A stretch of DNA of 64,000 nucleotides from a virus. A model generated the notes under the pieces. It was not told the origin of the DNA. It was given only the letters and a program-made list of their open reading frames with translations, and ran no database searches. Positions 1,316-56,207 of the stretch are shown here, in pieces; the stretch's first letter is position 1; every line of letters starts with the position of its first letter. Location: IMG/VR virus record IMGVR_UViG_3300030419_007131, positions 1 to 64,000 of that record; one strand, 5' to 3'. The position numbers were made by a program, and so were the translations under genes.

Positions 1316-4300
1316 TTATCCTAACAATCTTAAGTTTCTTCTAATCGATCTAGTTGAAAAACCCCATGCAGGATCGAAATCTAATTTACCCATATAGGGA
1401 CGATTCAAATGAATGCGATCTTTCCCTTCTACTATACCCCAACATCTAAACTTTGTCAACACTGAATTAGAATCAATTACTGCAACGATCCAATATGGTT
1501 TTCCATTCTTTGTCTTCTTTCTTATAATCTCTCGTGGAATAAACCACACCAATCCCAACTCCGGGTCATAGTCCGATATGGGAGGCACATAATAACTCTC
1601 CAGTTTGCTTCTCACGTCGTCGGTCATCACCAGATGCATCGGGAAGATGCCGGTGAGCGTCGTCTTGTTATCAATCTCTTCCTCGGTCGTAAAGTCGCCT
1701 TCGTCTTTATACTCCTCGATGTTTTCCAGAAACTTCTTCTTGCTATACACGCGATCGACTGCGACCGCAGACCAGAAGTGCTTGCGTCCCGTAAACCGTT
1801 CGTCCATTAGATTGTTTAGCGCCCCTGACCGAACGAGTACATCCAGCGCTTTCTTGTTCAGCTTGCTGTAGACGATATCGTCGTGGAACAGAAACTCCTC
1901 AATATTATTGAACGGCCTGTTCGCGACAATTTGTTCGATAGCTGCGTCTCCCAATCCCTTAAGTCCTGCGAGGGGCTGAACCAAGCGCTTCGGGTTGTCG
2001 GGATCAATCTCCCACACGAACGAGGAGGTGTTGATGTCTGCCTCCACAATCTCAAAGCCGTTCGACTTCGCGATGTTGATTGCCTTCTCCTTGCGCTTCT
2101 CGGGCTCCTTGTCGAGGAACGATGCCATCCACTCTACTGGGTAGTAGTTGTATAGCCACGCGCATTGGAACGAGATCGCCGAGTATGAGATAGCATGTGA
2201 CTTGTTGAAACCATAGCCCGAGAAGTATTCAAACCTCTCCCACATATCGTCGGCGGTGCCATGACCAATTCCCTTGGATACGCATCCATCAATGAACTTC
2301 TGCTTGAGGCGATTCTTAACGCGAGCTTCTTTGCCCGTGCCCTTCTTGGTCAACACCTTCCGAAGCATGTTGCCCTCGTCTAGCGTAAGGTCTTTGCCGA
2401 GCCTGTGTGCAAGCAGCGCGATCTGCTCTTGGAAGATAAGGAACCCATAGGTCTCTTGGGTTACATCCTTTACGTGCTCATTGATGTAATCAATTTCTCC
2501 GGGATGTGTCTTGGCTTGGATGTATTGCTCGTGCACGTTGGCGGATAGTGGACCTGGGCGATAGATCGAAGTGATGGCCGAGATATCAACTAGTGACTTC
2601 GGCTTTGCGTTCGCGCAGAATTCCTGTGCCCGCTGTTCCGTAAACTGAAAAATACCGGCGAAGTTGGCGCGGTGAAAAATGTTTCTATACACGGCTTGAT
2701 CATCAAAGTCGAGAACATCTGGATGAAGATTCTTATCATAGAACTCTTTCACATCCTCAAATGTCGGATCCGCATTATTATGATGTCTTTTTAAGATATG
2801 CCTAATCGCGCCTTCAATCATCCGGAGGGTTGACAGTCCCAACAAGTCAAACTTGATGAACCCGAGTGGCTCCAAGTGTCGAACGTTCTGCCCCTCCGAC
2901 CAAGGCGACTGTCGAACACCACCCGAACTAATGATCGGCATGTGCTCGTTCAAGTCATCCGCAATCAACACGCCCCCCGCATGACGGGAGCAGGACCGAA
3001 CCTGTCCGACCAGCGCCTCAACGTGCGTCTTGATGTGCGGATACTTTACTAGGAAGCCGCGCAGGGAAGGTGACAATTCCATCACCTCTTCCCAAGTCGG
3101 AGTATAAACTCCAGCCTTGATCCCGTGCTTTGCTTTGGCTGCCGGAGTAGCCTCGAAAATCATACTGGAGGTTACCTTGTTGACTTCAGTAAACTCGATT
3201 CCGTAAAACTTTGAAATGTCCTTGATGAGAGACTTCAACTGCAGAGTGTTCCAGTTTGAAATCGGAACAACTGAGTTCTTGCCCCAGTCTTCCATGAGCA
3301 TCTCCTTGAGTTCCATTGGCTCTGCAACATCATAATCAATATCTGGATAGTCTGTTGCATCCTTGCGCAAGAATCTCTCAAAGAGGAGTCCATACTTGAT
3401 GGGATCAATCTGAGTGATGCCCAGAACATAGGCCACCAGAGAGCCAGCCGCGGAACCACGACCAGGACCAGTCAACTGCACTTGGTTTGCCTTATCAGAG
3501 ATCGCCTTCATGGTCAAGAAGTATTTGCTAAATCCTCGGTCCTCGATAACATCAAGCTCCATCTGCAATCGGTCAGTGTATTCCTTATTATCGTGGAGGC
3601 CGCGTTGGCGCAACCCCTCCAAGGCATAGTTTACCAAAGCCTCGGCGTCGGTGAATCCTGCCGGGACCACGAAGTCTGGAAGTTTGACTGTGGTGTCAGG
3701 CACAAAGTCTTCAATTCTATTGAAAGCAATGTTGTGTGTCTCGGTGATCGAATCCATAACCAGCTGGTCATCATACTCAAAGCCACCGGTCTTGGAATAA
3801 TACTTATAGGCGTCCCACATCTGGTTGCCATTCTTGGGATACAGCTCGTACCCTATCTCTTCAACACCGTCAGGCAGTTCTGTATTGTCCTCCGCCCATG
3901 CTGGCGTTCCTTTGCCAAGCCAGCCGAGGCGCTTGTACAGTTCTCGGTCCTTCCAGGCTTCGTTGTTTGGATAATGACTGTCCGCTGTCGAGATAAGAGT
4001 AATGTCAAACTCTTTAGAGGTTTCGATAATGTACTGATTCAATTCATGCTGCTCTGGAATATTGTTCCACTGGAGTTCTCCGTACCAGCGATCCCCAAAG
4101 ATCTTTACAAACTGACGACTGGTTTCCCTCATCGCCTCGCGCACTGCTTCGGGGCCTTCCTCGCGGTTAGCCCAATAGTTCCCGGCGTACGGACCCCCTA
4201 GACAAGCAGAGGATGCGATAACCCCCTCTGAGTATTTGTCGAGCAGTTTGTAGTCCACGCGAGGATAGCGATAGAAGTTCTCTTCCTTATATGATTCGGA

Positions 4301-6373: not shown

Positions 6374-6709
6374 TTATTCGCGACGCGGACGACCCGCCTG
6401 GGCCGCCTGCTCATCGGGCGTAATTGGCGTGAACTCATCCTCGGCGGACTGGTACCAATATACCCCCCCTATCTCAAGTCCGCCAAGTTCATCAAGCAGT
6501 CCTTCCTCGCCACCCTCCAAGCGCGCTGCTGCAGCTAGCTCGGCGGCGCTCAAGGGCTCGAGGCGTCCTTCATCATTGAGTTTACTCCACAAAGCATTAA
6601 CTTTGTCTATCGCCGACTCGTAACCAACGTCATAGAGCCCCTCATTAAGGAACTTTCTCCAGTTCTCTGTGATTAGCTGGTGGTTTTTAAAACTTGAAAA
6701 CTTGCTCAT
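6374..6709 (-). CDS. hypothetical protein, ENWRKF-leader family (putative internal head protein)
   Basis: N-terminus ...LITENWRKFLNE; GGAGA RBS; CTATTTA motif upstream. Confidence 0.6.
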   Translation of the reverse strand: MSKFSSFKNHQLITENWRKFLNEGLYDVGYESAIDKVNALWSKLNDEGRLEPLSAAELAAAARLEGGEEGLLDELGGLEIGGVYWYQSAEDEFTPITPDEQAAQAGRPRRE

Positions 6710-6728: not shown

Positions 6729-6735
6729 TAAATAG
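6729..6735 (-). promoter_or_regulatory. putative late promoter motif CTATTTA
   Basis: Same heptamer found upstream of many structural genes. Confidence 0.6.
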
Positions 6736-6760: not shown

Positions 6761-7216
6761 TTATTCTTCTGCGTAACGCTGAAGCTCTTCGTCGTCTAGC
6801 CCTTGTAGTGATGCTACAAAGTCTGGTGTAACAAAGTTCATCGTGCACTCTGCAATTTCGTCAGCATTCGCACGGATAGCCGTCGCAATTGTTTTCTTCA
6901 TCAGCGACTCAATAATATTAGCATCGAAAGGAATATCAGGCACTACTCGATCAGCAAAATCTGCTGCATTGTCCTTTAAATACTGGGCCAATGTTTGCTC
7001 AGCTTCTTGCAAGAAACCCCGAGCCTTCCTTTTAACCATTGCTTGCAGGTCGTCGTCGCTCGCAAGGGCCGCGGTCCCCCCGGTAGCGATGGCGGCCGCA
7101 CCAGCGGCCGCACCTCCCAGTCGTCTCATGGCCGATCGGCGAGACATCTCTTCTTCAGTGAGCAGCTCTTGCTCTTTACTAAAGCGACGCCAGTCTTCCA
7201 TTATAAGTTTCATCAC
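6761..7216 (-). CDS. hypothetical protein, ENWRKF-leader family, with internal twin-arginine-like signal
   Basis: MKLIMEDWRRF..ELLTEEE followed by MSRRSAMRRLGGAAAGAAAIATGGTAALA-SDD. Confidence 0.6.
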   Translation of the reverse strand: MMKLIMEDWRRFSKEQELLTEEEMSRRSAMRRLGGAAAGAAAIATGGTAALASDDDLQAMVKRKARGFLQEAEQTLAQYLKDNAADFADRVVPDIPFDANIIESLMKKTIATAIRANADEIAECTMNFVTPDFVASLQGLDDEELQRYAEE

Positions 7217-7219
7217 TTA

Positions 7220-7226
7220 TAAATAG
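7220..7226 (-). promoter_or_regulatory. putative late promoter motif CTATTTA
   Basis: Lies between the groES stop and the next start codon. Confidence 0.6.
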
Positions 7227-7227
7227 T

Positions 7228-7506
7228 CTAACTATCCGACAAAATACCGATTACGTGGTTTTCCTTGATGACCGTGAAGGTCTCGCCGTTGTGCTCAATA
7301 TCGCGGAGCATGTGTGCTTCCACAACAAGTTGCAATCCGGTGCCCCAAAGGGTCCCCGATTCTCCCGAGCAATTGATTACCTCAACCACTGCGAATGGAC
7401 TCTCGACAGAGCGGTAGTCCTGGGGTAGCAAGATGCCACTCTCTTCAGTGTCTGTGTCCTCGACCGTCTTAACGACGAGGTAATTATTAACTGGTGATAA
7501 ATTCAT
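7228..7506 (-). CDS. groES: co-chaperonin GroES (cpn10; analogous to T4 gp31)
   Basis: LSPVNNYLVVK...ESGILLP mobile loop; C-terminal GETFTVIKENHVIGIL; 92 aa. Confidence 0.8.
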   Translation of the reverse strand: MNLSPVNNYLVVKTVEDTDTEESGILLPQDYRSVESPFAVVEVINCSGESGTLWGTGLQLVVEAHMLRDIEHNGETFTVIKENHVIGILSDS

Positions 7507-7507
7507 T

Positions 7508-8539
7508 TCATAACTCCTGTATTAGTCCTGTGTTTGTCCACTCCTCTAGCCCCTCCGGTGTCCACAGAAGAGCACCATCGGGCGATACGTCAGCCAGCGA
7601 TATAATGGCCGCTGTTCCCAATGTCAGAATGGTTGATCGGATTTCGGGGTCGGTAAACGTCACGTTGGGATTCAAGCAATTAGCTTCACACAGTACATCC
7701 GTGGGACTTTCAAAATCACAATGGTCGGCACTCGTAACTTTAACAATCTGAGAGTCTCCCATCATCTGAAAGAGAGCGAGGCCATTGTTCTCCGCATTGC
7801 ATCCCGAAGGCTCTCCCATAAGGAAGAAGCCCGTAGTAACGTCAGAAGCATACTGCTGGCCGATGAAATCAGCAACTCCGGGGGCGTCCTCAGTATCCGT
7901 AGTATCCAGACCAAGTACGCCAGGAGAGTCGGCATCTTGCGAAGCAGCAATGATAGCTGCCAGGCCTCCTGCCGAGTGGCCTGCATACACCACTTCAGTG
8001 GCACCACGTGATTCTCCGAGTTCAACCATGTTCTGGCCATTCATTTCGTGGTCTACGCCCCATAAAATATTGTAATGACATAGGGTCGGAAGAAGCACTT
8101 CCACACCCCACGAAGCTAGATGGTCAGCCCATCCTGCCATGACTCCAGCACCACGGGCAAAGCCATGACCCAAGACCACAACGGGAGGGTCGGTAACCCC
8201 CTCTGGCACATAGGCGGTATACTCCATATTAGCGCAGTCACTTACGCTAGCTGTAGCTTCCTCTTCACTCACAACATGAGGGCCTCGTTGGCCGAAGTCT
8301 GTGAGCCCTACTGGCTCTTCCGGTTCCTCTGGCTCTTCGGGCTCCTCCTCAGGCTGTTCGGGGGGTTCTTCCTCCTCTACGGGTGCACTGGAGTCGTCGT
8401 CGTCTGACGGCGTTTCTTCGGTGACCTCAACCTCTTCCTCTTCTTCGGCGGGAGCTGGCCCCCCATACGTTGTAACCCGGTAACCACACCCGGTTACTGC
8501 AATTAAAGCCCCCAAAGGGACCACTAAACTAGTTTTCAT
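7508..8539 (-). CDS. lipoprotein alpha/beta-hydrolase (chlorophyllase/PETase-like)
   Basis: Probable start MKTSLVV at 8539; lipobox VTGC; acidic Pro linker; GHGF oxyanion, HLASWG, GHSAGG nucleophile elbow, GLD, DHCDF. Confidence 0.75.
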   Translation of the reverse strand: MKTSLVVPLGALIAVTGCGYRVTTYGGPAPAEEEEEVEVTEETPSDDDDSSAPVEEEEPPEQPEEEPEEPEEPEEPVGLTDFGQRGPHVVSEEEATASVSDCANMEYTAYVPEGVTDPPVVVLGHGFARGAGVMAGWADHLASWGVEVLLPTLCHYNILWGVDHEMNGQNMVELGESRGATEVVYAGHSAGGLAAIIAASQDADSPGVLGLDTTDTEDAPGVADFIGQQYASDVTTGFFLMGEPSGCNAENNGLALFQMMGDSQIVKVTSADHCDFESPTDVLCEANCLNPNVTFTDPEIRSTILTLGTAAIISLADVSPDGALLWTPEGLEEWTNTGLIQEL

Positions 8540-8550
8540 TTTTTTCCTTT

Positions 8551-10977
8551 CTATCCGCACTTGGCGAAGCCGCACACAGTGCAAGTTACACACCCTTCAA
8601 CATAAACGAGGCCTTCGACCCCACACTCAGTACAGGTTTTCTCCGTAGCCTGTTGGCCATCTGGAATATAATTTTTCAACACTCTTGCCACGCACTTGGC
8701 GAAACTAAACATGTCCGAGTCACGATCTTTTTGAAGTTGTTCCACAACATATTGTATATTTGCTCCATGACGCAACCCCAACGAGATCATCCGAGTAAAG
8801 GCGCTGTGATTGGGGTTATCAAAAGCTTTAACCAAGTCCTTTATAATGATTGTATCACCGTTGGTTCCCACTTGCAAGTCATAAATTGAATTCATAGATT
8901 TGCGTGGATGCTTCACTAAAATACCCTCAGCCTTGGCGCGGGGAATCTCAATCAAATTTGATAGACCCCCCATAACTTCATATGGCTTGCCGTCCATAAG
9001 GCCAACCATAATGACCCACCTCTCGCCTTGAATGGTGGTGTGATGAATGTTGCAAGCGAGTTCGATGGGCCGCTTGGGAGCCTTGTGTTGTGGGAAGTCT
9101 CCAGATGTGTCCCACTTATCCACCAGCACCCCTGTACGCGAACCATCCACGTAAACGGTAATGCCCTTAAGGCCCATCTTCCAGCCTTGCATGTAAAGCT
9201 CGCCCACCAGCGCGGGATCAGTACCCTTCGGCAGGTTGATGGTAGAGCTAATGCTGTGGTCAATGGACTGTTGGATTACCGACTGGAGAGCGACGCGCTT
9301 TGTCCAATCGATGCTATCAGCCTCTACAAAGAAAGCCGGTAGGGCTCCTGGATCCTTAAAGGGATGCCACTCATGCCACTGCTGGACGTTATGGTGAAAG
9401 ACTTCGTACTCTACCCAACGATCTCCGAGATCGTCCACAAAATCAGCCTCTAGCTGCTGCTCGTCGTGAGATAGCTTGCGGCGACGAGTGTAGGAGTTAC
9501 GAAATACCGGCTCAAGGCCCGAGGAAGTCTGTGACATAATAGAAACAGATCCGGTCGGCGCGTTTGTCAGAATTGAAATGTTGCGGCGTCCATGCTGGGC
9601 GATCAATTCCTTCAGTTTCTCAGGCAACCGTTGGATAAACTCGTTGTTTTCTTCGATGCTCCAGGCAAAGGCCGGAAATGGGCCACGTTCTTGAGCAAGA
9701 TAGACGCTCTCCTCGTAGGCAGCGTCCCGTAAAGTCCGATAGATTTTCTCTGTGATTACAAGGGCTTCGTCGCTATCATACGCCAGATTGAGGCACGCTA
9801 GCGCGTCGGCCAATCCGTGAGTTCCCAAACCAGTGCGGCGACCATTTGCGGCCGCATTATATAGCTTTGTCCATAGCGCCTTTTCATCATCGGAATCGGC
9901 CACACTCCGAATGTTTTCAAGCTTCTCTAGCTCCAGTTCCACCAAGTCGTCGGACAGACGCATTCCCACCGCTGCTACCTCACGCAACTTATTAAAGTCA
10001 AAGTCTGCATTTTTTTCAAAAGAATTTTTAACGAGGCTTTTTAAATTGAGCGATATTAGTCTGCATGAGTCATAGGCAGAGAGTGGGATTTCTCCGCAAG
10101 GATTCGTTGTCTTGGTTTCAAACTCTGGATACGCATGGGCTGGCAAATTCTTAGTAATATTGTCCCACATTAAAAGCCCAGGCTCTGCGGTCTTGGTGGC
10201 TGACTCAATGATAGAGTTCCATAGCTCCGTCGCATTTATCTCAGATGTATATGCAGGGGTTTCTGCCTCTACTGGGAACTGCAGCGTGAAAGCTTCTCCC
10301 TTTTCAACGGCCTCCATAAACTCATCCGTAATCTTCACGGAAACATTGGCTCCCGTAACCTTGGTGAGGTCGTGCTTCATCTTGACGAACTCAGCAATGT
10401 CAGGGTGACGGATATCCATGGAGATCATCAGCGCACCGCGTCTGCCATTCTGTCCAATCATCCTGCATACATAGGAATAGAAATCAGCAAAACTCCAAGC
10501 CCCAGTAGTAGTCCGAGCAGAGTTGTTAACGGGAGCACCCTCGGGACGCAGATCAGAAATATCAAGGCCCACGCCACAACGACGTTTAAACAAGTTAGCA
10601 AGGTCTTTGCCAGCGTCCATAATGGACGAAACACTATCTTGTGGATTGTCGACAACCACACAGTTAGATAAAGATACATTAAGATAATCATTTCCTATTC
10701 CCATCATTGGTGAGCCCTGGGGCACAACGTATTTGAAATTCTTAAGGAAGGAATAAATATCCTCCTCTGTCAAGTGATTGGACTTGCGCGTAAGAAACTT
10801 GTCTTCCATTCTCGCGAACTCTTTCGCCAAGCGCTTATGCATATCGTCGGGCGTCTTTTCGACAAAGTTACCCTTCCTGTCGCGCAAACAGTACTTGGTC
10901 ATAAAAACGTTTGTTGCTAATTCGTCACCACCAAAATATTCCAGAGTTGCCTCACGGACTTCACTTTCTTCAAACAT
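8551..10977 (-). CDS. nrdJ: ribonucleotide reductase class II (adenosylcobalamin-dependent)
   Basis: SLSNC, RRGALM, NVSV, TNPCGE, RRTGLG, APTGS, SSGLEP, ISSTINLP, KGITVY; C-terminal Cys-rich ribbon; no beta-subunit gene nearby. Confidence 0.88.
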   Translation of the reverse strand: MFEESEVREATLEYFGGDELATNVFMTKYCLRDRKGNFVEKTPDDMHKRLAKEFARMEDKFLTRKSNHLTEEDIYSFLKNFKYVVPQGSPMMGIGNDYLNVSLSNCVVVDNPQDSVSSIMDAGKDLANLFKRRCGVGLDISDLRPEGAPVNNSARTTTGAWSFADFYSYVCRMIGQNGRRGALMISMDIRHPDIAEFVKMKHDLTKVTGANVSVKITDEFMEAVEKGEAFTLQFPVEAETPAYTSEINATELWNSIIESATKTAEPGLLMWDNITKNLPAHAYPEFETKTTNPCGEIPLSAYDSCRLISLNLKSLVKNSFEKNADFDFNKLREVAAVGMRLSDDLVELELEKLENIRSVADSDDEKALWTKLYNAAANGRRTGLGTHGLADALACLNLAYDSDEALVITEKIYRTLRDAAYEESVYLAQERGPFPAFAWSIEENNEFIQRLPEKLKELIAQHGRRNISILTNAPTGSVSIMSQTSSGLEPVFRNSYTRRRKLSHDEQQLEADFVDDLGDRWVEYEVFHHNVQQWHEWHPFKDPGALPAFFVEADSIDWTKRVALQSVIQQSIDHSISSTINLPKGTDPALVGELYMQGWKMGLKGITVYVDGSRTGVLVDKWDTSGDFPQHKAPKRPIELACNIHHTTIQGERWVIMVGLMDGKPYEVMGGLSNLIEIPRAKAEGILVKHPRKSMNSIYDLQVGTNGDTIIIKDLVKAFDNPNHSAFTRMISLGLRHGANIQYVVEQLQKDRDSDMFSFAKCVARVLKNYIPDGQQATEKTCTECGVEGLVYVEGCVTCTVCGFAKCG

Positions 10978-13879: not shown

Positions 13880-14155
13880 CTAATACTTAGCTAACTGGGC
13901 CGCGGCATTCATTAGGCCTTTAAGTGTTGAGTAAACTTTGCCGACTTCGTCCTTCAGGGCCCCATTCTCGCCATGGTCTGTGAGTGCGTCCGAATCAAGC
14001 ATCGACCCGCGGAGTTGCTTCAGGCCGACAGCAAGTTCCTTGTAAAAAGCGCGGGTCGCTTCGTTCTCCCATTTGTGGGGCACAAATTCCTCATTAACAG
14101 CATCTTCTTGAGAAAACTTTTCCCAGTTTTCCATTATAAGCTTCATATCAGACAT
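13880..14155 (-). CDS. hypothetical protein, ENWRKF-leader family
   Basis: MSDMKLIMENWEKFSQEDAVNEE; AGGAG RBS; CTATTTA at 14181-14187. Confidence 0.6.
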   Translation of the reverse strand: MSDMKLIMENWEKFSQEDAVNEEFVPHKWENEATRAFYKELAVGLKQLRGSMLDSDALTDHGENGALKDEVGKVYSTLKGLMNAAAQLAKY

Positions 14156-14180: not shown

Positions 14181-14187
14181 TAAATAG
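14181..14187 (-). promoter_or_regulatory. putative late promoter motif CTATTTA
   Basis: Immediately after the recA stop codon. Confidence 0.6.
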
Positions 14188-20098: not shown

Positions 20099-21400
20099 CT
20101 AGTAAAGCTGTTGCGTAATCGACCCAGCTGTACTTATTTTACCCTGTCTGATCTGATTGTCAAGGTTTTTAAATACATTTTCATTAATCAGCGGATAATC
20201 AATCCCATAAATGTAGTCACGATAGATGAGATTAATATATTCTACTATATTTTCCAGACCTGTCAAGTTCTGATTTGGCCGTAGCTCATGAATGGCGCCC
20301 AAATCACTTCGAAGCTTCGTTGTAAACGCAAGGGGCTCTGCTGCTTCGACGCTGCGCAAGTTAAGATACAAGTTTGCCAGATACTTGTCCGTTAAAATGT
20401 CTTCAACATAAGAGGTAGGCGGTCGTTCGCGGTTAGACAGCTGGAACTTGTCGCATCCTGGTCTATAGATGCGCTCCTCATAAAACGGATTAAGAGTAAT
20501 ATATTGATTATAAGAATTAACTAAAAATGTTTTCAACAAAGGCAAGTCCATCATATGAGCATATTCATAATAGTGACCAAAAAAATTATCCTCATCAACA
20601 GTGGCGCCGACTTCTGTTTCATACTCCACTACATATTTCATGATTGCATCTGTAAAAAGATCCGCTGTTAAAAGCCACGGAATATTTTTATTAACCGTAA
20701 AGCCATATTTTTTCGCACATCGTACATAAAATACAAAGTTAGGATCCGTAAGGTATTTTTCATACTTCCACTCATCAACATCGAATTGACCCTGGTCTAT
20801 AGACACACAGAGCCCAGAACTAAAAATATCTATGGCACTCGAAAGCGTATAGTTGGTGAGAGTGACAGGGATCGCCGGGGCAACCTCTAGCAAATATTCC
20901 ACAAATAACTCTGTGAAGCTTCGGAAGTCTCTTATTTTGCTGCTGAAGCGCGGATAGACTTCAATAAAAGATTTATACACGAGATTCAAGTACTTCTTAT
21001 AGTGGTCTAATGAACTATTATAGCCACGCTTTGCGGCGACCTTTATCATTTTTTTGTTGCCCGCTGGGTTAGCAATCCCTATTACGTTAGCATCCGCCAT
21101 ATGAGCACTGAACGCATCGAATGCGTCCGCAACAAAGTCCAATAAATAAATATCTGGCTTGGCGGCATAGCGAGGAACCTTCAAACGATTCTGCTTAAGA
21201 CTAATGGTGTTTTGAAGTCTATCAATTTTTCCATAATATTGCTTATCGTACCAAGTATCAAGGGGAGCAACAACACCAGTAGGGTATATTTTTTCTTTGT
21301 AAAGAAGTCTTTGATAATATAAGGCCAAAGACGACAAACCATTCTTGCCCTGAGGATTGGTTAAATCCGAGGGTGTAAATTTAATAGGAGGGGCGGTCAT
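20099..21400 (-). CDS. hypothetical protein (probably late/virion-associated)
   Basis: 433 aa; CTATTTA 4 nt upstream (21405-21411). Confidence 0.6.
   Translation of the reverse strand: MTAPPIKFTPSDLTNPQGKNGLSSLALYYQRLLYKEKIYPTGVVAPLDTWYDKQYYGKIDRLQNTISLKQNRLKVPRYAAKPDIYLLDFVADAFDAFSAHMADANVIGIANPAGNKKMIKVAAKRGYNSSLDHYKKYLNLVYKSFIEVYPRFSSKIRDFRSFTELFVEYLLEVAPAIPVTLTNYTLSSAIDIFSSGLCVSIDQGQFDVDEWKYEKYLTDPNFVFYVRCAKKYGFTVNKNIPWLLTADLFTDAIMKYVVEYETEVGATVDEDNFFGHYYEYAHMMDLPLLKTFLVNSYNQYITLNPFYEERIYRPGCDKFQLSNRERPPTSYVEDILTDKYLANLYLNLRSVEAAEPLAFTTKLRSDLGAIHELRPNQNLTGLENIVEYINLIYRDYIYGIDYPLINENVFKNLDNQIRQGKISTAGSITQQLY
20136..20163 (-). promoter_or_regulatory. sigma70-like promoter at the boundary between structural and replication modules
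   Basis: TTGACA-N16-TAAAAT within the 3' end of the upstream CDS. Confidence 0.5.
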
Positions 21401-21424
21401 GTTTTAAATAGTCTCTGTACTTTT

Positions 21425-30752: not shown

Positions 30753-31376
30753 CTATTCGCGACTTCGCTGTTCTGCCAGGTGTCGGCGAACACCGTCGGA
30801 CATGGGAGCGCCGCCCTCTTTAGGAGTATACGTAGCCCAATCATACCTGATTGTCAGCTCAATATTAAGTAATTCTTCGCCGCTATAATCTAAATCGCCG
30901 AACTTAGCATTAGTGATGAAGGGGCTGTTGAGTACCCATTCACCAATTTCTTGTCCTTGACCGTTAATCTCTGTAATCAATACAGCGCCCAATGTAGCCA
31001 GTGCAGCTTCTTTATTGGGAGTGCCAGGGCCAGGGCCCGGGCCGTTTTCTTCACCACCGCCACCGAAGAAGGCGGCCTGGTCGCCGGGATCAAAGTAGCC
31101 GGCCTCATAAAGAGCCTTATAAAGAATATCATTGCCATCAGGCTCCACGGAATTAACTAAGGTTACAGTAATAGGATCCCAAGTAACGGCGCCTGGATAA
31201 TAGTACGTATTACCAAGAAACTTGTGCTCGGTCTCGCTCAAAGTATAAGAAGGCTTTGTAACCGTCTTTGCCAGGTACCGAAGATCGCCTCCCGCTAGCG
31301 TACTCAAGTTGGGAAAATTCAATAGAAATCTATGTTGCCTGCGGGGCTCTGATGATGCTAAGTTCCAAAATGCCAT
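30753..31376 (-). CDS. tail tube protein (gp19-like)
   Basis: EPRRQHRF, KPSY, YYPGAVTWDPITVT, FGDLDYS, IELTIRYDWA; start MAFWN at 31376; CTATTTA at 31406-31412. Confidence 0.85.
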   Translation of the reverse strand: MAFWNLASSEPRRQHRFLLNFPNLSTLAGGDLRYLAKTVTKPSYTLSETEHKFLGNTYYYPGAVTWDPITVTLVNSVEPDGNDILYKALYEAGYFDPGDQAAFFGGGGEENGPGPGPGTPNKEAALATLGAVLITEINGQGQEIGEWVLNSPFITNAKFGDLDYSGEELLNIELTIRYDWATYTPKEGGAPMSDGVRRHLAEQRSRE

Positions 31377-31445
31377 TTTTACATGTCTCCTGTTAAGGTC
31401 TAGATTAAATAGTGTAAGGAGGTAAAACCTCCCCACATTTATTTA

Positions 31446-34325
31446 TTAATCGTCGAAAGATGCTCCCGTTCTTGTAATATTGAAATCGATTGCAATATAT
31501 TCGATTGCACGCGTCGGCTTCAAGAAGATCTGAGCATACATAATGTTCCGATCGATGAGATCCGGCGTCGTGGTGGTTTCATCCAGGACCACCTTAAAGT
31601 CAGAGAGACCAAAGTTAGTCTTGACAGACTGCAGCAAGGGCTCTACTTGAGCCTTGAAGCGGTCCCATGTCACCTTGACATTCGGATCGAAAAGGATTTG
31701 CGAAGCAATCTGCGAAATGCGCTTCTTCACGAAGATCATCAAGCGACGTACATTGATACGATCAAGCGCCGAAGCCGTCGTCTGAAGGGTCTTCTGACCG
31801 AAGATCACAATTCCTTCTGCAGGGAACTTCGCAATGGGGTTAATATTCGCTCCATAAAGGTCGTCGCGGTCCTTGCGGCGCAAGTGATGGGCCACATCTA
31901 CCACCGGGATGCCAGCGGCACCCTCGGTGAGGCCGCCGCGGTTGAAGCCTGCGGGGGCGAACCAGACCTGAGTCTTCTGCTGGGAGCTTGAGAATGTTCC
32001 CAAAGCCGCAACAGAGGGGGGCAGCCACACGAAGGATCCGTTCAGGGTATCTCGTGCACGCACCCATGGGTAGAAGGCGCAACCATACGAGGAGTTAAGG
32101 CCTCGGGAGCGCATTCCATTAACAGCTGCGCGAATGGTGGAAGCCCTGTTATTGCGTGCCTCGGCGAGGCCTTCGGCGCGAGGGGTGAAACCGCCCTCAA
32201 GGTCGATAATAGCCAAAGCATCGGCCCTCTCTTCGCACATGCGAATAAGATTGGTCGTAAGACCGGCTTGCTTGAGGCCAGGAATCGTAGCCAAGTTCAT
32301 TTCAGCCACCTCAGGGTCGGCGACCGAATCGATGGATCGACGAATGCTATTGAAAACATAGCTATTCTGGTCTGTTGCAGCTGAGCCCAAGTAACGAGCA
32401 CTGCTGTTGAAGGGATCCATCTCGTCAATTTCAGTTCCATCAAAGCCGCCGTACAGAGGCACAGTGAACCGATCGTAACCGGCATCGAGAACACCACTCA
32501 CCGCTCCACTAACTGCTGTAAGCGACGTTCCGGCGCGAGTTCCGCCGGAGCCGGCGTGTGATCCACTCACCCAGGCGCCAACCATGGAGCCTGAAATATC
32601 GTCAAGAGTAAACTCAACAGATGTTTCAGTCTTAAGCGTATTGCTGGCTCCGCCGAACATACTTCCAACGATGCCGCCGCGAGGACGGAGCATATCAATG
32701 GTAGAACTATCGAACACCGTGCTGCCAGCACCCTTGCTGGTCTGCAGTCCGAAGAATGCGTCAGTCTTATTGCTAAGATTGCCAGCGGAAGCGCTTGCGC
32801 GTAGCTCCGGAGCCGGGTAAAGAACCAAGAACTCGTTAGCAGCCTGATTATTGGTAGAAGCCGAGATGACAAAAATCGACCCACTAGTAGCAAGGGGACT
32901 GCCGGGGACTGCCATGCGCGTAGCATTACTGAGGGAACCGGAAATCCAGTTGCCCTGCCCGGTAGTGCCAAGCGTCTCTTCATCATCCCACTTGGTCATT
33001 CCACGGAAGCCAAAGGGCAGAAGAGCAGGGTTGGTAAGGCCCGCATTAACGTCCGAGTTCATCTCGACGCGAATGTAGGCAGAATTATTTGGCCAATCGC
33101 CTTCTTGAATATAGCGGCGCTCGGTCTCTTCCCACACGCGGCGCTGGTCGCCGACCTTGCGTGCAACATAGTTGGCCGAGTTGGGGTTAAGATCGCAGTT
33201 AGAAAACATTTCAACCACGCGAACCACATTATCGGAGTCGCTAAGGTGACGAACCACAAGAGTAAAAGTACCATAATCGCTGGAATCGGCAGAAGACCGC
33301 TGAATATCTTGGATAGATACCTTAAGGTTTCGGTTAGTCCAGTCGCCGGGCTCTTCGAGGGCTACAACCTTGAACAGATTTTGTGGAGCGTCTGCAGGGC
33401 CCAAGCGGCAGCTGATAATTTGAGGACTCTCCGCACCCTGAAGAGGGTCGGTGAAGTCACTCGCAGCAAGTGCGCTGGTACCGCCGGCCAACTTAACCAG
33501 GGCTCCATAAGTTGTACTAGACGTAATGTTCGACTTTAGATGACGATCAAAGGTCTCGCCGAGCCAGTAGTTAAGGGGGGTGGACGTCAAGCCAGAGTTA
33601 GTCAACTGAGGATTGGTGTTGAGAGACTTACGAATGTATCGTGAATCATTTTCATTAAAGTTAACAACCACAGTTGAATCCGAAGTGCCCTGATAATTGC
33701 TAAGATTAATCTTGAACTGATACTGGATGCCCGCATTGGAGCCCACCACGTAGTCAACACCCTGGACGGAGCTCGACGCGACGGTGCCTCCGCCCGTGCT
33801 GCCCGTGGTATCCACGTAAATGGCTCCGGACAACTGAGGCTCAAAGGAGCTATCGCCATATATAATAGCCGCGAGGGCGCCGGTAAGCTGTGTTCCGGTA
33901 ACGCCGGCAGGGCCACCGCCCTCAAACACGACCAGGCCCCATGCACTGGTGGAAGACCAGCCAGCAGGACCCTCTGTTCCGGTTGGACCACCGTCAGCAG
34001 TAGTCTCCGCGCCCAGGAGGCGAATATAAGTCAAAGGAGAACTGTTCTTAAGATAAGCTTGTGCGGCATACATGCCATAAGTGGGTGCCGACAAATCATT
34101 GCCAGTACGCCAGACATCATCGCCATCGCCACCAGCGGCAGGGGCGCCAAAGACGTTAACAAATTCTTCAAAAGAGTTAACAGTTATGGGCCGTAATGCT
34201 GGCCCTTTAGCGGCGCGGCCGATGACGACGGGGCCGATGCCCGCAGGGGAAGCGGGAAGTTGGGAGTTATCAATCTCATTGACAAAAACTCCGGGTGAGA
34301 CGAATCGATACTTTTTAGCTGACAT
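31446..34325 (-). CDS. contractile tail sheath protein (gp18-like)
   Basis: FVSPGVFVNEID, FYPWV, WFAPAGFNRG, INPIAKFP, FGQKTLQ, DRINVRRL, LKPTRAIEYI; CTATTTA at 34362-34368. Confidence 0.95.
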   Translation of the reverse strand: MSAKKYRFVSPGVFVNEIDNSQLPASPAGIGPVVIGRAAKGPALRPITVNSFEEFVNVFGAPAAGGDGDDVWRTGNDLSAPTYGMYAAQAYLKNSSPLTYIRLLGAETTADGGPTGTEGPAGWSSTSAWGLVVFEGGGPAGVTGTQLTGALAAIIYGDSSFEPQLSGAIYVDTTGSTGGGTVASSSVQGVDYVVGSNAGIQYQFKINLSNYQGTSDSTVVVNFNENDSRYIRKSLNTNPQLTNSGLTSTPLNYWLGETFDRHLKSNITSSTTYGALVKLAGGTSALAASDFTDPLQGAESPQIISCRLGPADAPQNLFKVVALEEPGDWTNRNLKVSIQDIQRSSADSSDYGTFTLVVRHLSDSDNVVRVVEMFSNCDLNPNSANYVARKVGDQRRVWEETERRYIQEGDWPNNSAYIRVEMNSDVNAGLTNPALLPFGFRGMTKWDDEETLGTTGQGNWISGSLSNATRMAVPGSPLATSGSIFVISASTNNQAANEFLVLYPAPELRASASAGNLSNKTDAFFGLQTSKGAGSTVFDSSTIDMLRPRGGIVGSMFGGASNTLKTETSVEFTLDDISGSMVGAWVSGSHAGSGGTRAGTSLTAVSGAVSGVLDAGYDRFTVPLYGGFDGTEIDEMDPFNSSARYLGSAATDQNSYVFNSIRRSIDSVADPEVAEMNLATIPGLKQAGLTTNLIRMCEERADALAIIDLEGGFTPRAEGLAEARNNRASTIRAAVNGMRSRGLNSSYGCAFYPWVRARDTLNGSFVWLPPSVAALGTFSSSQQKTQVWFAPAGFNRGGLTEGAAGIPVVDVAHHLRRKDRDDLYGANINPIAKFPAEGIVIFGQKTLQTTASALDRINVRRLMIFVKKRISQIASQILFDPNVKVTWDRFKAQVEPLLQSVKTNFGLSDFKVVLDETTTTPDLIDRNIMYAQIFLKPTRAIEYIAIDFNITRTGASFDD

Positions 34326-36696: not shown

Positions 36697-38478
36697 CTAA
36701 ACTAGGCTCTTAATAACAACCAGTCCATACATATCAGGACGCACCATCTTCTTGGCATATCGGGTCATGACGCCCTTACGAGGTACGAAGTCCTCGACGC
36801 CGAAGATAGTAGGCGTGGTCTGCAGCGGCACATAAGGTGCGTACACATAGCCACTCTCAAGGAAGCTACTTCCACGTCGGCCAACAAGGACCAAGTTACG
36901 CGGGAAGTAAGGATCGACGATAACGTCGAACTTCTTCGAAAGCGAACCAACCTTAACAGCACCCGCGTCGCCGCGGTCGCTATCAGCAGTCACATTGGCA
37001 CGGAAGCCAGCGGTGAACTCAAGGATGTTGGCAACTTCAGGTCCGCAGACGACGAAGTTAGCAGCACCACGGAGAGTCTTCCGATGGATCTGTGCGGAGA
37101 CGTCATTGATAGTCTCAATGAGGGTCTCATACCACTCACTCACGTTACCGGTGAAGTCCGGAGGCGCAGTTCCAGTACCAATCACAACACCCGTCTCACG
37201 ATTCAAGAAATCGCCAGGGGAGCGCGACCAGTAGCGGACGCCTGCGGTAGCACCCACAACGAGATCCTCAAGGATCTCTTGATCAATTTCAAGAGCAACC
37301 TGCTCAGACAGAATCTGAGTAAGCTCGACTTCAGCGTCAAGGTTGTGGTAGGCGTTAAGATCTTGTCCTAACTCCGGGGTCCACTTGGCCTTGAGCTTCT
37401 TGGTGATCGCCGTGACGGCCACCGAGTCGACCTTGATGTCGATCTCAGGAATGTAGGCATTGCCTTCCAGTCCCCACTGCTGTGCGGGAAGAACAGCACC
37501 GATAGACGGTGACGTTCCACCAAAGTTATCAACGATCGGGAACGAAGCCGTGAGGCCTGAAGCCCACTCGGCATCAAGCTGAGCAACTGTAACAGTTCCA
37601 GTATCACCACCAACCAACACGAGCAGAACACGAGCAGAATCGGTCGGATCTTCGCGCTGGAGACGACGTGCCTGAATACCATTGGTAGGCTCGACACCGG
37701 CTGCGGTGCGCACCTTAATGGCAACAGCATCCTCTTGGTTCCATGCGCCGCCCGCGCTGTCGGCGAGGTCGGTCTTAAGAACGGAAACCACACTAAAGCT
37801 AGAACCAGATGCAAGATCCGGGTCAAACTCAAGCAGTCCGCGAAGCTGATAAGCAGCAGCGGTCTGGTTGCCGGGAGGCACGGAGAAGTCGCAAAGACCA
37901 CCCACGCCGATAGAACCCGAAGCAATTTGCTCTAAGGCAGCCGGGGAAGGACCAACACCGGCAGAACCCGTCGGAGACGAGTAACCGTTGTTGAGTGCAT
38001 ACGGACCACGCTCAGCGTTCTGCCCCGTGAGGAGAACACCGCCGGTGATCTGGCTACCAACTCGTCCACCACCATAGAGGGAGGAGCCACGAGGATAACC
38101 CAAGCGGAACGTATCCGCGGTCTGGCCATCAGCGATCTCGTTAGAGACAGTGAAGTCCAGGAAGAAGATGAGGCCCGAGGGCAAACTCATCGGCTGAACG
38201 CTAACGAGATCGTTGGCGATCAAAGAGCCGAATACACGGCGAACGAGGGGGAATGCGACAGCCGCAAAGCCCTCCACATCACCAGCAGCCATGCTACTGG
38301 ACTCACGGAGAAGCTCACGTGCCTGGTTCTCAAGCAGTCGGGCCATTCCATTCCGAAGATCATCGCTTCCAAGTCCTTCGAGAAGTCCGGTCTGTTCCCA
38401 CTTTCCAATGAGAGCAGTACCTTCCTTGCCGAGGTCACGGTTAACAATACCTTCAGTTAATTTCTGAACGATAGACAT
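36697..38478 (-). CDS. major capsid protein (T4 gp23-like)
   Basis: LLENQ, PLVRR, VSVQPMSLPSGLIF, KLKAKWTPELGQDLNAYH.LDAEVEL, YAPYVPL, GVMTRY; GGAGG RBS. Confidence 0.95.
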   Translation of the reverse strand: MSIVQKLTEGIVNRDLGKEGTALIGKWEQTGLLEGLGSDDLRNGMARLLENQARELLRESSSMAAGDVEGFAAVAFPLVRRVFGSLIANDLVSVQPMSLPSGLIFFLDFTVSNEIADGQTADTFRLGYPRGSSLYGGGRVGSQITGGVLLTGQNAERGPYALNNGYSSPTGSAGVGPSPAALEQIASGSIGVGGLCDFSVPPGNQTAAAYQLRGLLEFDPDLASGSSFSVVSVLKTDLADSAGGAWNQEDAVAIKVRTAAGVEPTNGIQARRLQREDPTDSARVLLVLVGGDTGTVTVAQLDAEWASGLTASFPIVDNFGGTSPSIGAVLPAQQWGLEGNAYIPEIDIKVDSVAVTAITKKLKAKWTPELGQDLNAYHNLDAEVELTQILSEQVALEIDQEILEDLVVGATAGVRYWSRSPGDFLNRETGVVIGTGTAPPDFTGNVSEWYETLIETINDVSAQIHRKTLRGAANFVVCGPEVANILEFTAGFRANVTADSDRGDAGAVKVGSLSKKFDVIVDPYFPRNLVLVGRRGSSFLESGYVYAPYVPLQTTPTIFGVEDFVPRKGVMTRYAKKMVRPDMYGLVVIKSLV

Positions 38479-42607: not shown

Positions 42608-43837
42608 TCATTCCCCGTGCTCCGATCTGCCATCATGAAGAATGAACCAATGGGTTCCTGTACTAATTACGCTTAAACTTTGAGGAGTAGTGCCCTCAAT
42701 ATCCACCTTAGCTTGATCTGATTCCAAATTCGGGCCTTGGAACGTGGTCGAAGTCCCGGAACTAGTAACACTCAAAACATCGTTGGCCCCCTGAGCATGA
42801 CTCACAACATGATACATACGCCCTGTGACCCCGGATGGATTAGGGAGAGTAAACGCAGCATCGCCGTTGCCCGTATAATCAACCACATAATGAGTTTCGT
42901 CAACAGTAATACTTCCTGCTATTTGGGTATAGTTGCCGGCTTGAGATCCGCTTACTTCAAAAGTTGAGGCCGGAGTTGCACTGCCGATTCCCACCCTATC
43001 ATTGGCGGCGTCAGTACGAAAAAGGTTAGCCTGATTTTCTCCTTTTACCTGAAGGTCAATATCTAGCGCTCCGTAATTAATCATCAACTTATCAGTAGAA
43101 TCTTCTTGACATTTTAAGAATCCCCTCCCGCCAACATAAAGAACTATTTCATCCTCTGAGAATTGGATGTATGTATCGGCATCTCCGTTATGATAAATGT
43201 ATTCGTCGACGCCGATGTTGCCTGCAACGTCAAGAGTGTAGTCGGGGGAATCTGTGCCGATGCCCACCCTGCCGGATCCGGTGACCGCCAAAACCGGACT
43301 CTGTGCCGAATCATGACAAATGAATATCATACTATCATCAGAAGAGGAAAGATGCATGAGAGACGTTGGGGTCCAGGCGAGGCCCGCATCGGGCCCAATA
43401 CTAAAGAAACCATTGCTATCAATAGCAGCCTTTATTACGGCACCAATTCTGAAGTACATATCTTGACCAGCAACAGAGTTTAAACTGAGATCTCCCGCGG
43501 ATCCAATTAAAAGGTTGTATTTCGCATGTCTGCCGGTGCCGTGATGATCTTGATTACTGTGCCCCAGAAACCCATATGTGGTGGACTGAGGCCATGCGCC
43601 CAGCTCTAAACGCCCCATTCTTACAATAGATGCAGATACAGGAACATCGAGAGCAAACGTAGAATCGGGTTGGGCGCCGATTCCAACCGTTGACGAGGAT
43701 ACCACTAGGGTAGCAGAGCCCCCAGTTACAACGCCGAAGGCATCTTCGCTCCAATCTAAAAATGTATTTCCCTGAGCATCATCTTCGTTGTAGATGTCGC
43801 CCCGATTGACTTTGCCTTTTGTATATTTATAAGCCAT
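42608..43837 (-). CDS. fibre-like virion protein
   Basis: VGIG..P...L.V repeats; C-terminal TLP...GTHWFI domain; CTATTTA at 43845-43851. Confidence 0.65.
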   Translation of the reverse strand: MAYKYTKGKVNRGDIYNEDDAQGNTFLDWSEDAFGVVTGGSATLVVSSSTVGIGAQPDSTFALDVPVSASIVRMGRLELGAWPQSTTYGFLGHSNQDHHGTGRHAKYNLLIGSAGDLSLNSVAGQDMYFRIGAVIKAAIDSNGFFSIGPDAGLAWTPTSLMHLSSSDDSMIFICHDSAQSPVLAVTGSGRVGIGTDSPDYTLDVAGNIGVDEYIYHNGDADTYIQFSEDEIVLYVGGRGFLKCQEDSTDKLMINYGALDIDLQVKGENQANLFRTDAANDRVGIGSATPASTFEVSGSQAGNYTQIAGSITVDETHYVVDYTGNGDAAFTLPNPSGVTGRMYHVVSHAQGANDVLSVTSSGTSTTFQGPNLESDQAKVDIEGTTPQSLSVISTGTHWFILHDGRSEHGE

Positions 43838-43866
43838 CTCACACTAAATAGAAACTACCAAACAAA

Positions 43867-52704: not shown

Positions 52705-53301
52705 TTATTCTAAAATACTATCGATCAAAGATATGATTCGATTATTTTTAAGTACTTCCTTATCTCTCAGCTTGCCTTCCTGCAGGGCCATAAATGCATT
52801 TGGCGTCGAAGGTTCTGACACAATGTCAAAACAAATTAACTGAAAATCATCTTCAACGATTGTCTTACCCATTTGCTCACGAACCGACCCCATTCCTCGC
52901 GACGAGATGCCAGTCTTAACTCCACACTCCACCAAAGATCGTAGAATCTGTCCCGAAGGGGTATTAAGAACCTTAATCTTTCCCATCACTGCGGGGCCTT
53001 CCATCCATACCTCGGTAACCATATGTGACACATTGGCAAGATTGATAATCGAAGAGTCCGGGTGGTCTAGTTCTCCCAAAGCACGGTTGTCTTCAACCAT
53101 TGCTGCGTACTTCGTAACTTCGCGTTCCATAATAGCATGCGGATAGATACGACCATTGCCGTTCTGAACGTCCGACTCTTGTAACTTGCCCGTAAGCATC
53201 ATGCCGCCCTCTTTTACAAATTTCTTTTCGGCTTCCGTCAGCAGGTCCTGACAGACACCACCTTCGCATAGTTCATAAAATTCTCGTAGTAGCTGTGCCA
53301 T
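52705..53301 (-). CDS. prohead maturation protease (T4 gp21-like)
   Basis: NGNGRIYP, ALGELDHP, VSH, GISSRGMGS, FDIVSEPSTPNA. Confidence 0.92.
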   Translation of the reverse strand: MAQLLREFYELCEGGVCQDLLTEAEKKFVKEGGMMLTGKLQESDVQNGNGRIYPHAIMEREVTKYAAMVEDNRALGELDHPDSSIINLANVSHMVTEVWMEGPAVMGKIKVLNTPSGQILRSLVECGVKTGISSRGMGSVREQMGKTIVEDDFQLICFDIVSEPSTPNAFMALQEGKLRDKEVLKNNRIISLIDSILE

Positions 53302-54341: not shown

Positions 54342-54896
54342 TTATTTAAAGTAACCGGTGCTTCCGAGGATCATGTGGTAATTTAGATCGACTGCGGTTG
54401 GGCTCGCAGGCTCCAAGTTTTTTGGCACCTCGGCATCTGCGGGATAAGCTGTTACGTACCCGGTATCGGGAAAAACAAAAAATACATAATCTGTTTTCCA
54501 AGATTTGGAAGAATCCGTGCCTTCTTTTTTATCCTTTTTTTGAATCCTAGACCCAAGGATGCCCCAGTTAGAAACCCCATTGGCATCCGTGAGACTTTCA
54601 CTTTCTTTGGCTTGATCAACTTGCACCGGAGTATTGTCTACCGGCGCATCTGATGCGTGAGCCGGCGGTGCCATGGCGCCCGTCGCAACACTTAAAGCAA
54701 CAGCAAGGGGAAGTGCTTTTTGTGTGACTTGCTTGCGAACCCAGGCCGCCTTTTTTGGCCCAACGAAGTTAACAATTCGATCCCACAGCTCGCCTTCGGT
54801 AATCTGTCCGGACTCATAAAGCAGACAAATATCCTGTGCTTCGGTTAAAAGTTGGTACTTTCTCCAGCCTTCCATCATCAGCTTCATCTCGGACAC
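54342..54896 (-). CDS. hypothetical protein, ENWRKF-leader family, with internal Sec-like signal
   Basis: MSEMKLMMEGWRKYQLLTE...KKAAWVRKQVTQKALPLAVALSVATGAMAPPAHA-SD. Confidence 0.6.
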   Translation of the reverse strand: MSEMKLMMEGWRKYQLLTEAQDICLLYESGQITEGELWDRIVNFVGPKKAAWVRKQVTQKALPLAVALSVATGAMAPPAHASDAPVDNTPVQVDQAKESESLTDANGVSNWGILGSRIQKKDKKEGTDSSKSWKTDYVFFVFPDTGYVTAYPADAEVPKNLEPASPTAVDLNYHMILGSTGYFK

Positions 54897-55402: not shown

Positions 55403-56207
55403 TGATCGCAACCTCTTGGGCCAACTCTTGAGTCTTCAGTACCTTGTTGAGATCTTCGTCAGAAAAATCCCTTTTCCGAAATTCTTCCAAGTATTCCAGG
55501 ACACTATTCAGCTTTTCTTCTAAAAGCGGGGCGTCGGATGTCTCTGCGGCGGCGCCAATCTTTCCCTTTAGGCGCGCCAATTCCTCATTAAGATAAGCGC
55601 GCAGTTCAAGACCCTCGTCAGCAAAGCTTGTAATATAACGATTGAGAAGGTCCTTTTGTTCCTGCAAAAGCGCTTCATACTTATTATTAAACTTCTTGAT
55701 AAACGAGTTATAAGTGATATTGTCTATGGGCGCCATGTGGAGTGTTTCGTTTATTGATTGTTTTGAACTCATGCCATCGACAATAGATTGTTCGAATAAA
55801 ACCTTTTTCTTTACTGGGGTGTTCTTGCTGAAGATAGCATTCACCGAGGCAAGACTCTTAAAGTTGGGAACAAAATTAGCCCAGACCGTCTTGCCTAAGT
55901 TCTTATTAATAACTGCGATGGCCTCAGATTGTGCCGCAAAAATATTGTCATGGTCTAGCCGTTGATGGCTAGCTTTCGTCTCTTGTAGTAGTCTTTCTGC
56001 CACCGGCGCATGCAAACGCTTTGTTTCTAGCAACACGCGATAAAGTTGTAGCTCTTCAGCCAACACACTTCCTTTATTAAAAAACTGTTTGATAATGGCT
56101 ACAACTTTTTGTTTCCGAGATGAATCCTTTTTGATGATAGCTTGTGTCAGCTCGTGGGTAAGGGTTTCATAAATAAAAGCTGTGTTTCTTTTTTTGTTAT
56201 GCTTCAT
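55395..56207 (-). CDS. hypothetical helical protein downstream of the portal
   Basis: Start MKHNKKRN at 56207; GGAGG RBS; CTATTTA at 56294-56300. Confidence 0.6.
   Translation of the reverse strand: MKHNKKRNTAFIYETLTHELTQAIIKKDSSRKQKVVAIIKQFFNKGSVLAEELQLYRVLLETKRLHAPVAERLLQETKASHQRLDHDNIFAAQSEAIAVINKNLGKTVWANFVPNFKSLASVNAIFSKNTPVKKKVLFEQSIVDGMSSKQSINETLHMAPIDNITYNSFIKKFNNKYEALLQEQKDLLNRYITSFADEGLELRAYLNEELARLKGKIGAAAETSDAPLLEEKLNSVLEYLEEFRKRDFSDEDLNKVLKTQELAQEVAIND

Follow-up and report, generated by a model that had tools for sequence, protein, structure and literature searches.

A candidate capsid-loading leader followed by a Tat-like segment in a protein of an uncultured marine T4-type phage

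In bacteriophage T4 the first 10 residues of the internal protein IPIII suffice for capsid targeting and are removed by the gp21 protease, and proteins fused to this capsid-targeting sequence (CTS) are packaged, delivered to the next host and can refold there (PMC9026906; PMC3012670). In the giant phages phiKZ, 201phi2-1 and SPN3US, a protease related to gp21 cleaves many head proteins after Glu, and some of these proteins are modular, polyprotein-like precursors (PMC9026906). Here we describe a gene at positions 6761-7213 on the minus strand of a 64-kb window (the whole stretch of DNA analysed), which is the first part of a single 165,065-bp virus contig, IMG/VR record IMGVR_UViG_3300030419_007131 (46% GC; CheckV completeness ~91%). 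The product of this target gene opens with a short leader that ends at a protease-type site and runs directly into a segment shaped like a signal of the twin-arginine translocation (Tat) pathway. Judged by its genes, the phage is a distant member of the T4 superfamily, uncultured and marine; related contigs are found in marine metagenomes, those of Tara Oceans among them. On the most economical reading, by sequence and by analogy, the leader is a propeptide that loads the protein into the capsid in the manner of the T4 CTS, and we consider this probable. The full chain proposed for the target protein, in which it would be packaged, cleaved, injected and then exported by the next host, we put at a probability of about 0.35.

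The likeness to T4 IPI, IPII, IPIII and Alt lies in a short N-terminal tag, carried by unrelated proteins and ending in (L/I)-x-E, in the presence of an encoded Peptidase_S77 protease and in late-type expression, judged here by motif; the cargo set also looks diverse and effector-like. There are differences, however. The leader (~14-25 aa) is not homologous to MKTYQEFIAE and shares only a loose pattern with it (MK, Glu6 and an aromatic residue at 7/8), the genome also carries a second type of leader (MKITKxxLKxIIxEE), the cargo is acidic whereas that of T4 is basic, and the signal-peptide-like module behind the cut site is undescribed for T4. Packaging is in our case predicted from sequence. 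The giant-phage head proteins find a parallel in two fusion proteins, P0009 and P0016, which resemble modular polyprotein-like precursors, although the giant-phage cut sites have another motif logo and no export signal has been reported behind them. A full-text literature search found no paper on a phage in which a capsid targeting sequence and a twin-arginine signal occur together, and the target protein appears to be a variant of the T4 CTS/internal-protein theme that has not been seen before. Proteins of the thylakoid lumen carry a bipartite presequence, in which a stromal transit peptide is followed by a Tat or Sec lumen signal ending in A-x-A and the two are removed in two steps. This is the closest functional analogy, since there too two address labels stand in series, and a dedicated protease takes off the first to uncover a Tat or Sec signal. 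It is an analogy only: in the phage, a virus capsid would stand in for the first compartment, and the second step would be carried out in another cell.

A three-part product and its start codon

The open reading frame (ORF) 6761-7216(-) is present in the sequence. Its true start is most likely the ATG at 7213, giving a product of 150 aa, because all homologues begin MKLIM/MKFIM and because this ATG sits 6 nt past a CTATTTA motif. The product is therefore one residue shorter than in the initial annotation, which numbered residues from a GTG start; its description of an RR motif, a Gly/Ala h-region and an A-x-A site followed by SD was accurate. Residues 21-51 (Table 1) consist of EEMSRRSAMRRLGG and AAAGAAAIATGGTAALA, after which residue 52 onward begins SDDD. 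The uncharged run spans 20 residues (32-51; 10 Ala, 5 Gly, 2 Thr, 2 Leu and 1 Ile), and the target is alone among the ~173 ORFs of the genome in having RR followed by at least 13 uncharged residues near the N-terminus. That this run is a by-product of base composition was considered and rejected, since the RR/Gly-Ala segment has a local GC content of 75% compared with 45% in the rest of the gene and 46% in the genome.

We compared the target family across five close clusters, one IMG/VR contig, fifteen metagenome loci and eight more distant representatives. The leader, the [LI]xxE junction, SRR and the uncharged Gly/Ala run are retained in ~25 metagenomic homologues. In three lineages 40-65 in-frame residues have been inserted between leader and junction, and ..[LI]xxE-EEMSRR is unchanged behind them. 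The leader codons vary synonymously among loci, which is conservation as protein. Because the frame is open across these insertions and the junction is invariant, we conclude that the leader is translated. The IMG/VR search itself returned only one relative, a word-indexed search that used just residues 21-60 found the target protein and nothing else, and the divergence of a broad alignment (A2) was too great for it to serve in finding loci.

These comparisons bear on a rival explanation in which Met24 is the true start of an ordinary Tat precursor and the upstream leader is untranslated or a mis-called extension. An ATG does stand immediately before SRR, and the purine-rich Glu codons upstream of it could mimic a weak ribosome-binding site, but the protein-level conservation of the leader and the frame kept open across the insertions speak against such a start. 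In addition, one lineage (L022) has Val (GTC) in place of Met24, the Glu codons ahead of this position vary, the GGAG that usually stands 7-9 nt upstream of the phage's other genes is absent, no GGAG-type ribosome-binding site conserved ahead of Met24 was found among the homologous loci, and in P0009 the motif lies ~240 residues inside the ORF. A start at Met24 only, which the initial annotation had named as an outcome that would leave an ordinary Tat precursor, is thus largely ruled out, and we regard it as very improbable.

The CTATTTA motif that the initial annotation assigned to the gene is present, at the position given in Table 1. The window contains 22 copies where 8.2 +/- 2.75 would be expected, and the coding strand carries 20 of these copies. 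Since copies stand directly upstream of the sheath, tube, head-tail adaptor and scaffold-like genes, the motif behaves like a late promoter element, and the leader-tagged genes that are scattered amid replication genes each have their own copy. At several places (7213-7226, 21400-21411 and 43837-43851 in the window; 142011-142024 and 149690-149705 in the genome) an ATG lies 4-10 nt downstream of CTATTTA with no Shine-Dalgarno sequence, and late mRNAs of this layout may be leaderless or nearly so.

Portable leaders and a shared cleavage-site motif

The leader on the target protein, which the initial annotation wrote as MKLIMEDWRRF..ELLTE and described as shared, indeed recurs. Its motif (type A), M-K-L-x-x-E-x-W-[RK]-x-[FY] with L-T/N/V-E coming 0-8 residues later, opens ~10 ORFs of the genome, of which 6374-6709, 6761-7213, 13880-14155 and 54342-54887 lie inside the window and a further cluster lies at 138-142 kb (locus L001). 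As its occurrence on unrelated proteins indicates, the type-A leader is a real, portable N-terminal module. A second leader, type B (MK[IL]T+xxL+xIIxEE), stands at the start of at least four other ORFs (65.6-67.1 kb and 136 kb), and is also found on distant homologues of the target's domain (P0008, P0011-P0016) and on ORFs in the related contig L025.

The leaders of the paralogues end in LTE, LNE or LVE, and the junction reads [LI]xxE in all homologues of the target. In the first 40 residues of the genome's proteins LTE is 2.8-fold enriched (8 observed, ~2.9 expected from the rest of the proteome), which fits a common processing motif. The eight carriers include five leader-tagged proteins, the gp23-like major capsid protein and the S77 prohead protease, the last being the gp21-like protease that the initial annotation had placed at 52705 and that the Pfam match in Table 1 bears out. 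The protease carries DLLTE-AE at its own residues 19-25, and the capsid protein has additional L-x-E sites within the expected propeptide region. That the leader-end motif is shared by these two proteins suggests autoprocessing and a common cleavage logo.

The cargo behind the leaders is varied. A 476-aa protein reads as kinase-like, with a Gly-loop but no Pfam hit, and a 307-aa HAD-like protein ends in a ParB-like motif, GHHRLEAAKKLG; both are candidate injected enzymes. The other leader-tagged cargo consists of small helical proteins and of a family with a Sec-like segment, and related contigs add further leader-tagged families, including a PGDYG-domain protein. The N-terminus and upstream promoter region of 13880-14155 match those of the fusion protein P0009. 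In a set of 50,697 phage records, tblastn found no match to the target or its 20-aa leader, nor to P0014, a type-B-leader protein or the kinase-like cargo.

A leader-tagged 344-aa protein belongs to a family with the motif GGRD(L/M)AAMY.A.DR.TP..LRLLA and hydrophobic helices, with relatives in L003, L008, L010, L014, L018, L020, L021, P0012 and P0014. Members of this family are fused to the target's domain in P0009, P0012 and P0014. P0009 (L004:375-1466) and P0016 are natural two-module leader-tagged fusions in which the second module retains only the cut-site end of the leader, and they look like polyprotein precursors.

The leader's company is relevant to a rival explanation in which the target is an ordinary late protein of the producer cell, exported by Tat or anchored in the membrane and active for example in lysis or exclusion, with a leader that is merely a long n-region or has some other use; it would then be unpackaged, or partly packaged with a dual fate. 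Tat signals can have long n-regions, and an N-terminal extension does not block Tat in every case; the target gene lies amid replication genes and not in the head module, and its placement in the virion is inferred from its sequence. Yet the same leader stands on soluble enzyme-like proteins that have no hydrophobic segment, while the proteins that the phage exports in the ordinary way, the lipoproteins 7508-8593 and L001:5528-6190, begin with a plain signal and lack the leader. Moreover, RR lies 70-95 or ~240 residues from the N-terminus in some homologues, and the junction is a protease-type site that is found also on the capsid protein and the protease. We consider this explanation unlikely.

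The second leader-bearing family of interest (54342-54887) runs from leader and LLTE through a 30-residue helix and a Lys/Arg-rich patch (KK..K n-region) to the hydrophobic segment ALPLAVALSVATGAMA and PPAHA followed by SD. This layout is kept in ~25 homologue clusters with differing C-terminal domains, and in two short forms the hydrophobic segment lies almost directly behind the leader. The place of such a protein between portal and protease favours a rival explanation in which the target is a prohead-membrane tether: the leader would bind the prohead core, the RR/hydrophobic segment would anchor in the producer's inner membrane and cleavage at L-T-E would free the prohead. Proheads of T4 are indeed built on the inner membrane, which they leave once mature (PMC9026906), and the positive charges stand on the leader side of the hydrophobic run, compatible with an N-in topology. 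For the target, however, the Gly/Ala run is weakly hydrophobic (grand average of hydropathicity 1.3) and would make a poor stable anchor, the A-x-A site would cut off the periplasmic domain, the gene is outside the head module and such a tether is without precedent. We hold it to be quite improbable.

The Tat-like segment and the case for export

If the leader is a capsid-loading propeptide, its cleavage would expose an N-terminus that targets membrane or export, because cut site and RR module are conservedly coupled. In the mechanism that we propose, the N-terminal leader (MKLIMExW+xF..LLTE) would dock the precursor into the assembling prohead core, as the T4 CTS does, and the Peptidase_S77 prohead protease would cut at the [L/I]-x-x-E / L-T-E junction, leaving EEMSRR and the Gly/Ala run as the new N-terminus. 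The processed 14-kDa protein would exit the head along with the DNA. In the newly infected cell the exposed twin-arginine, weakly hydrophobic segment would engage the inner membrane, most likely by way of the Tat translocase of the host; signal peptidase would then, in the close clade, cleave behind A-L-A, and the 11-kDa acidic helical domain would be released to the periplasm ahead of any phage gene expression.

The resemblance to a Tat signal (TIGR01409 / Pfam TAT_signal) consists of S-R-R, a weakly hydrophobic h-region rich in Gly, Ala and Thr and, in the close clade, A-x-A. SRR is invariant in every member that has the module, although the clades are only 46-60% identical. The h-region varies in sequence and length and is always uncharged and Gly/Ala-rich (14-21 residues; mean Kyte-Doolittle 1.2-1.7). 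The residues after S-R-R are S/A/N/R, then A/M, then L/M, then G/R/K, and P0010 has SRRSMLK, near the Tat consensus. The module also occurs behind the type-B leader, where L018-L022 read MKISKTQLRTIIKEEL...E followed by AEMSRR and LGLVGGGVAGLAGGAAAA, and in the 363-aa fusion P0009 it is internal, at ~residue 240, directly after SELLTE. The best hidden Markov model (HMM) matches over the module are mostly N-termini of Tat substrates, namely TIGR02811, the formate dehydrogenase region TAT target (E=5.7e-4), then TIGR01409, TIGR01412 and MelC1, all of the Tat-type matches falling below their curated cut-offs. From these comparisons the RR/Gly-Ala segment is clearly signal-peptide-shaped and under selection; its formal membership of the Tat-signal family is putative. 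For the Tat-like signal of the initial annotation, the invariant SRR and the uncharged Gly/Ala run speak in favour; the HMM scores and the want of an A-x-A common to the family speak against.

Several observations weigh against export. TIGR01409 scored 7.5-13.0 bits against a cut-off of 16.7, and Pfam TAT_signal was not reported even at E<=10. At RR+2, which is usually Phe, Leu or Val, the family has Ala or Met, and in the primary product the RR motif is not N-terminal, being 24 residues in at the nearest and ~240 at the farthest. Such an extension does not necessarily block Tat recognition, and masking of the signal by the leader is hypothetical. Only the clade with the type-A leader keeps A-L-A followed by Ser; type-B members have ..AAAAKEAG.. 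there, and in P0009 the h-region is short and broken by Glu. The distant domain homologues P0011-P0016 (25-32% identity) carry the type-B leader and no RR/Gly-Ala module, so the domain itself has no intrinsic need for export. Loss of RR and A-x-A from homologues had been named in the initial annotation as evidence against its proposal, and the outcome is divided: close and mid-distance homologues keep SRR, whereas the type-B clade lacks A-x-A and distant homologues lack both. The suggestion that signal peptides are enriched right after L-x-E in leader families did not hold, since of ~20 leader-bearing families only the target's has a signal-like segment right at the junction; in the 54342-54887 family it comes ~40 residues past the junction, and there is no general enrichment. 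We were unable to find a bacterial Tat-exported relative of the domain among 1.84 billion representatives. No cultured relative among the 50,697 phage records has the target gene, and hence there is no virion proteome to consult. Finally, conserved LQE, IIE and IAE triplets lie inside the C-terminal domain, and a T4-like protease might chop the domain like a scaffold-core protein.

The domain gives few further clues. AlphaFold2 predicts a confident helical bundle for residues 53-149 (predicted local distance difference test, pLDDT, mostly >90), a low-confidence helix for the leader and disorder for the Gly/Ala residues 33-50 (pLDDT <50). The acidic domain found no significant fold match, another point against the export proposal; searches of BFVD, PDB (Foldseek, VIA wide) and ESM Atlas gave only generic helical bundles (Z<=7, TM<=0.44), and a search of the Atlas by feature produced nothing usable. 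Pfam and PHROGs returned nothing meaningful for the target, phrog_2231 (E=0.0017) covering only the low-complexity region. An i-spanin-like function was rejected, as no gene for a lipoprotein partner lies downstream and the domain, a compact bundle, is also found with no hydrophobic segment attached.

Several of these points also favour a rival explanation, a packaged and processed internal head or prohead-core protein in which the RR/Gly-Ala stretch is not a signal but a protease-accessible flexible spacer, with an Arg-rich patch that may contact DNA or the core, or else a membrane-active ejection peptide. The sub-threshold Tat HMMs, the predicted disorder, the distant homologues with leader and domain but no module, and the internal conserved L/I-x-E sites, like those of degradable core proteins, are all as such a protein would have them, and stretches of Arg and Gly/Ala occur also in the 344-aa protein L001:528-1562 and in an upstream ORF in L002. 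On the other hand, a spacer does not readily account for an S-R-R that stays invariant, without Lys substitution, across such divergent clades, for an uncharged run of 14-20 residues that survives indels, for an n/h/c order with A-L-A before Ser in the close clade exactly as in a signal peptide, or for best HMM neighbours over the module that are mostly Tat N-termini. We regard this explanation as possible but doubtful. The proposal of export in the next host, applied beyond the target, would be that uncultured T4-type phages pre-load their heads with proteins of bipartite address, in which the prohead protease unmasks a Tat-type signal (a Sec-type signal in the second family) and the new host re-routes the protein to its periplasm or inner membrane, with an effect on the envelope before phage transcription. 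In this general form we advance it only tentatively.

Genomic setting and what it would mean

Nearly all genes of the window are on the minus strand. The portal protein is most similar to those of Microcystis phage Mel-JY01 (43% identity) and Flavobacterium phage immuto (38%). Comparable leaders were not found in the head module of Mel-JY01, the nearest cultured phage by portal similarity, and a blastn search of our head module against the 50,697 phage records gave zero matches, that is, no nucleotide similarity to deposited phages. The target gene itself sits amid replication genes, and the phage genome was found to contain no TatA, no further TIGR01409 match, no GH19 and no T4-type lysozyme. 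The thioredoxin/AhpC-TSA-like lipoprotein gene lies beside the leader-gene cluster in an arrangement kept in the related contigs L025 and L026, and an Amidase_3 gene in L025 has neither leader nor signal.

Table 1. Positions of the target gene's parts and of other features of the phage (L-numbered entries are positions within that locus)
Feature	Position	Strand	Remarks
Type-A leader of target, residues 1-20, MKLIMEDWRRFSKEQELLTE	7154-7213	-	L-T-E protease-type site at end
Tat-signal-like module of target, residues 21-51, EEMSRRSAMRRLGGAAAGAAAIATGGTAALA	7061-7153	-	EEMSRR n-region, Gly/Ala h-region, A-L-A before Ser52
Acidic helical-bundle domain of target, residues 52-150	6764-7060	-	Isoelectric point 4.2; core YLxxNAxDxA..VPDIPFDxDIIE..AEC conserved
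CTATTTA motif of target	7220-7226	-	Upstream of ATG; no Shine-Dalgarno between
Neighbouring leader-bearing gene, ..HQLITENWRKFLNE	6374-6709	-	Own CTATTTA at 6729-6735
Leader-bearing gene, MSDMKLIMENWEKF..AVNE	13880-14155	-	CTATTTA at 14181-14187
Second leader-bearing family	54342-54887	-	Between portal and protease genes
Paralogue of 54342-54887	L001:2804-3445
Leader-tagged 476-aa protein	L001:3448-4878	-	Kinase-like Gly-loop IGRGSFRSVYK..VIKV by sequence reading
Leader-tagged 307-aa HAD-like protein	L001:1611-2534	-	DxDxT motif; Pfam PNK3P E=0.009
Leader-tagged 344-aa protein	L001:528-1562	-	DUF6582 C-terminus, QLTE-EED site
Type-B leader ORFs (genome 65.6-67.1 kb)	L007:1652-1960, 1996-2376, 2376-2873, 2870-3085
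Type-B leader, further ORF	genome ~136.1 kb
gp23-like major capsid protein	36697-38478	-	phrog_138 E=8e-67; KLTE at residues 6-9
Prohead serine protease, T4 gp21-like	52705-53301	-	Pfam Peptidase_S77 (PF03420) E=1.7e-31; phrog_207 E=7e-55
Portal	56197-58140
Large terminase	58144-59730
Tail sheath	31446-34325
Tail tube	30753-31436
Lipoprotein, lipobox LIAVTGC	7508-8593	-	Long Glu/Pro-rich linker; alpha/beta-hydrolase-like C-terminal part (Hydrolase_4 only E=0.026)
GroES-like gene adjoining lipoprotein 7508-8593	7228-7506		Cpn10 E=1.4e-4
Thioredoxin/AhpC-TSA-like lipoprotein, lipobox LLVGAC	L001:5528-6190	-	Beside leader-gene cluster

Two portable leader families, type A and type B, are newly defined here, a result that holds even without export. 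So does a second: an abundant uncultured marine phage lineage has a sizeable set of candidate head-packaged cargo, kinase-like and phosphatase-like proteins among them, and this set offers concrete targets for viral metaproteomics. If the export proposal is true, it would amount to a new logic of protein delivery between cells, in which the capsid serves as the first compartment and a host export signal is reserved for the next cell. The injected proteins of the T4 internal-protein paradigm are cytoplasmic anti-defence effectors, and the paradigm would here be extended to the cell envelope, so that a phage could alter the periplasm or membrane of its host within seconds of adsorption.

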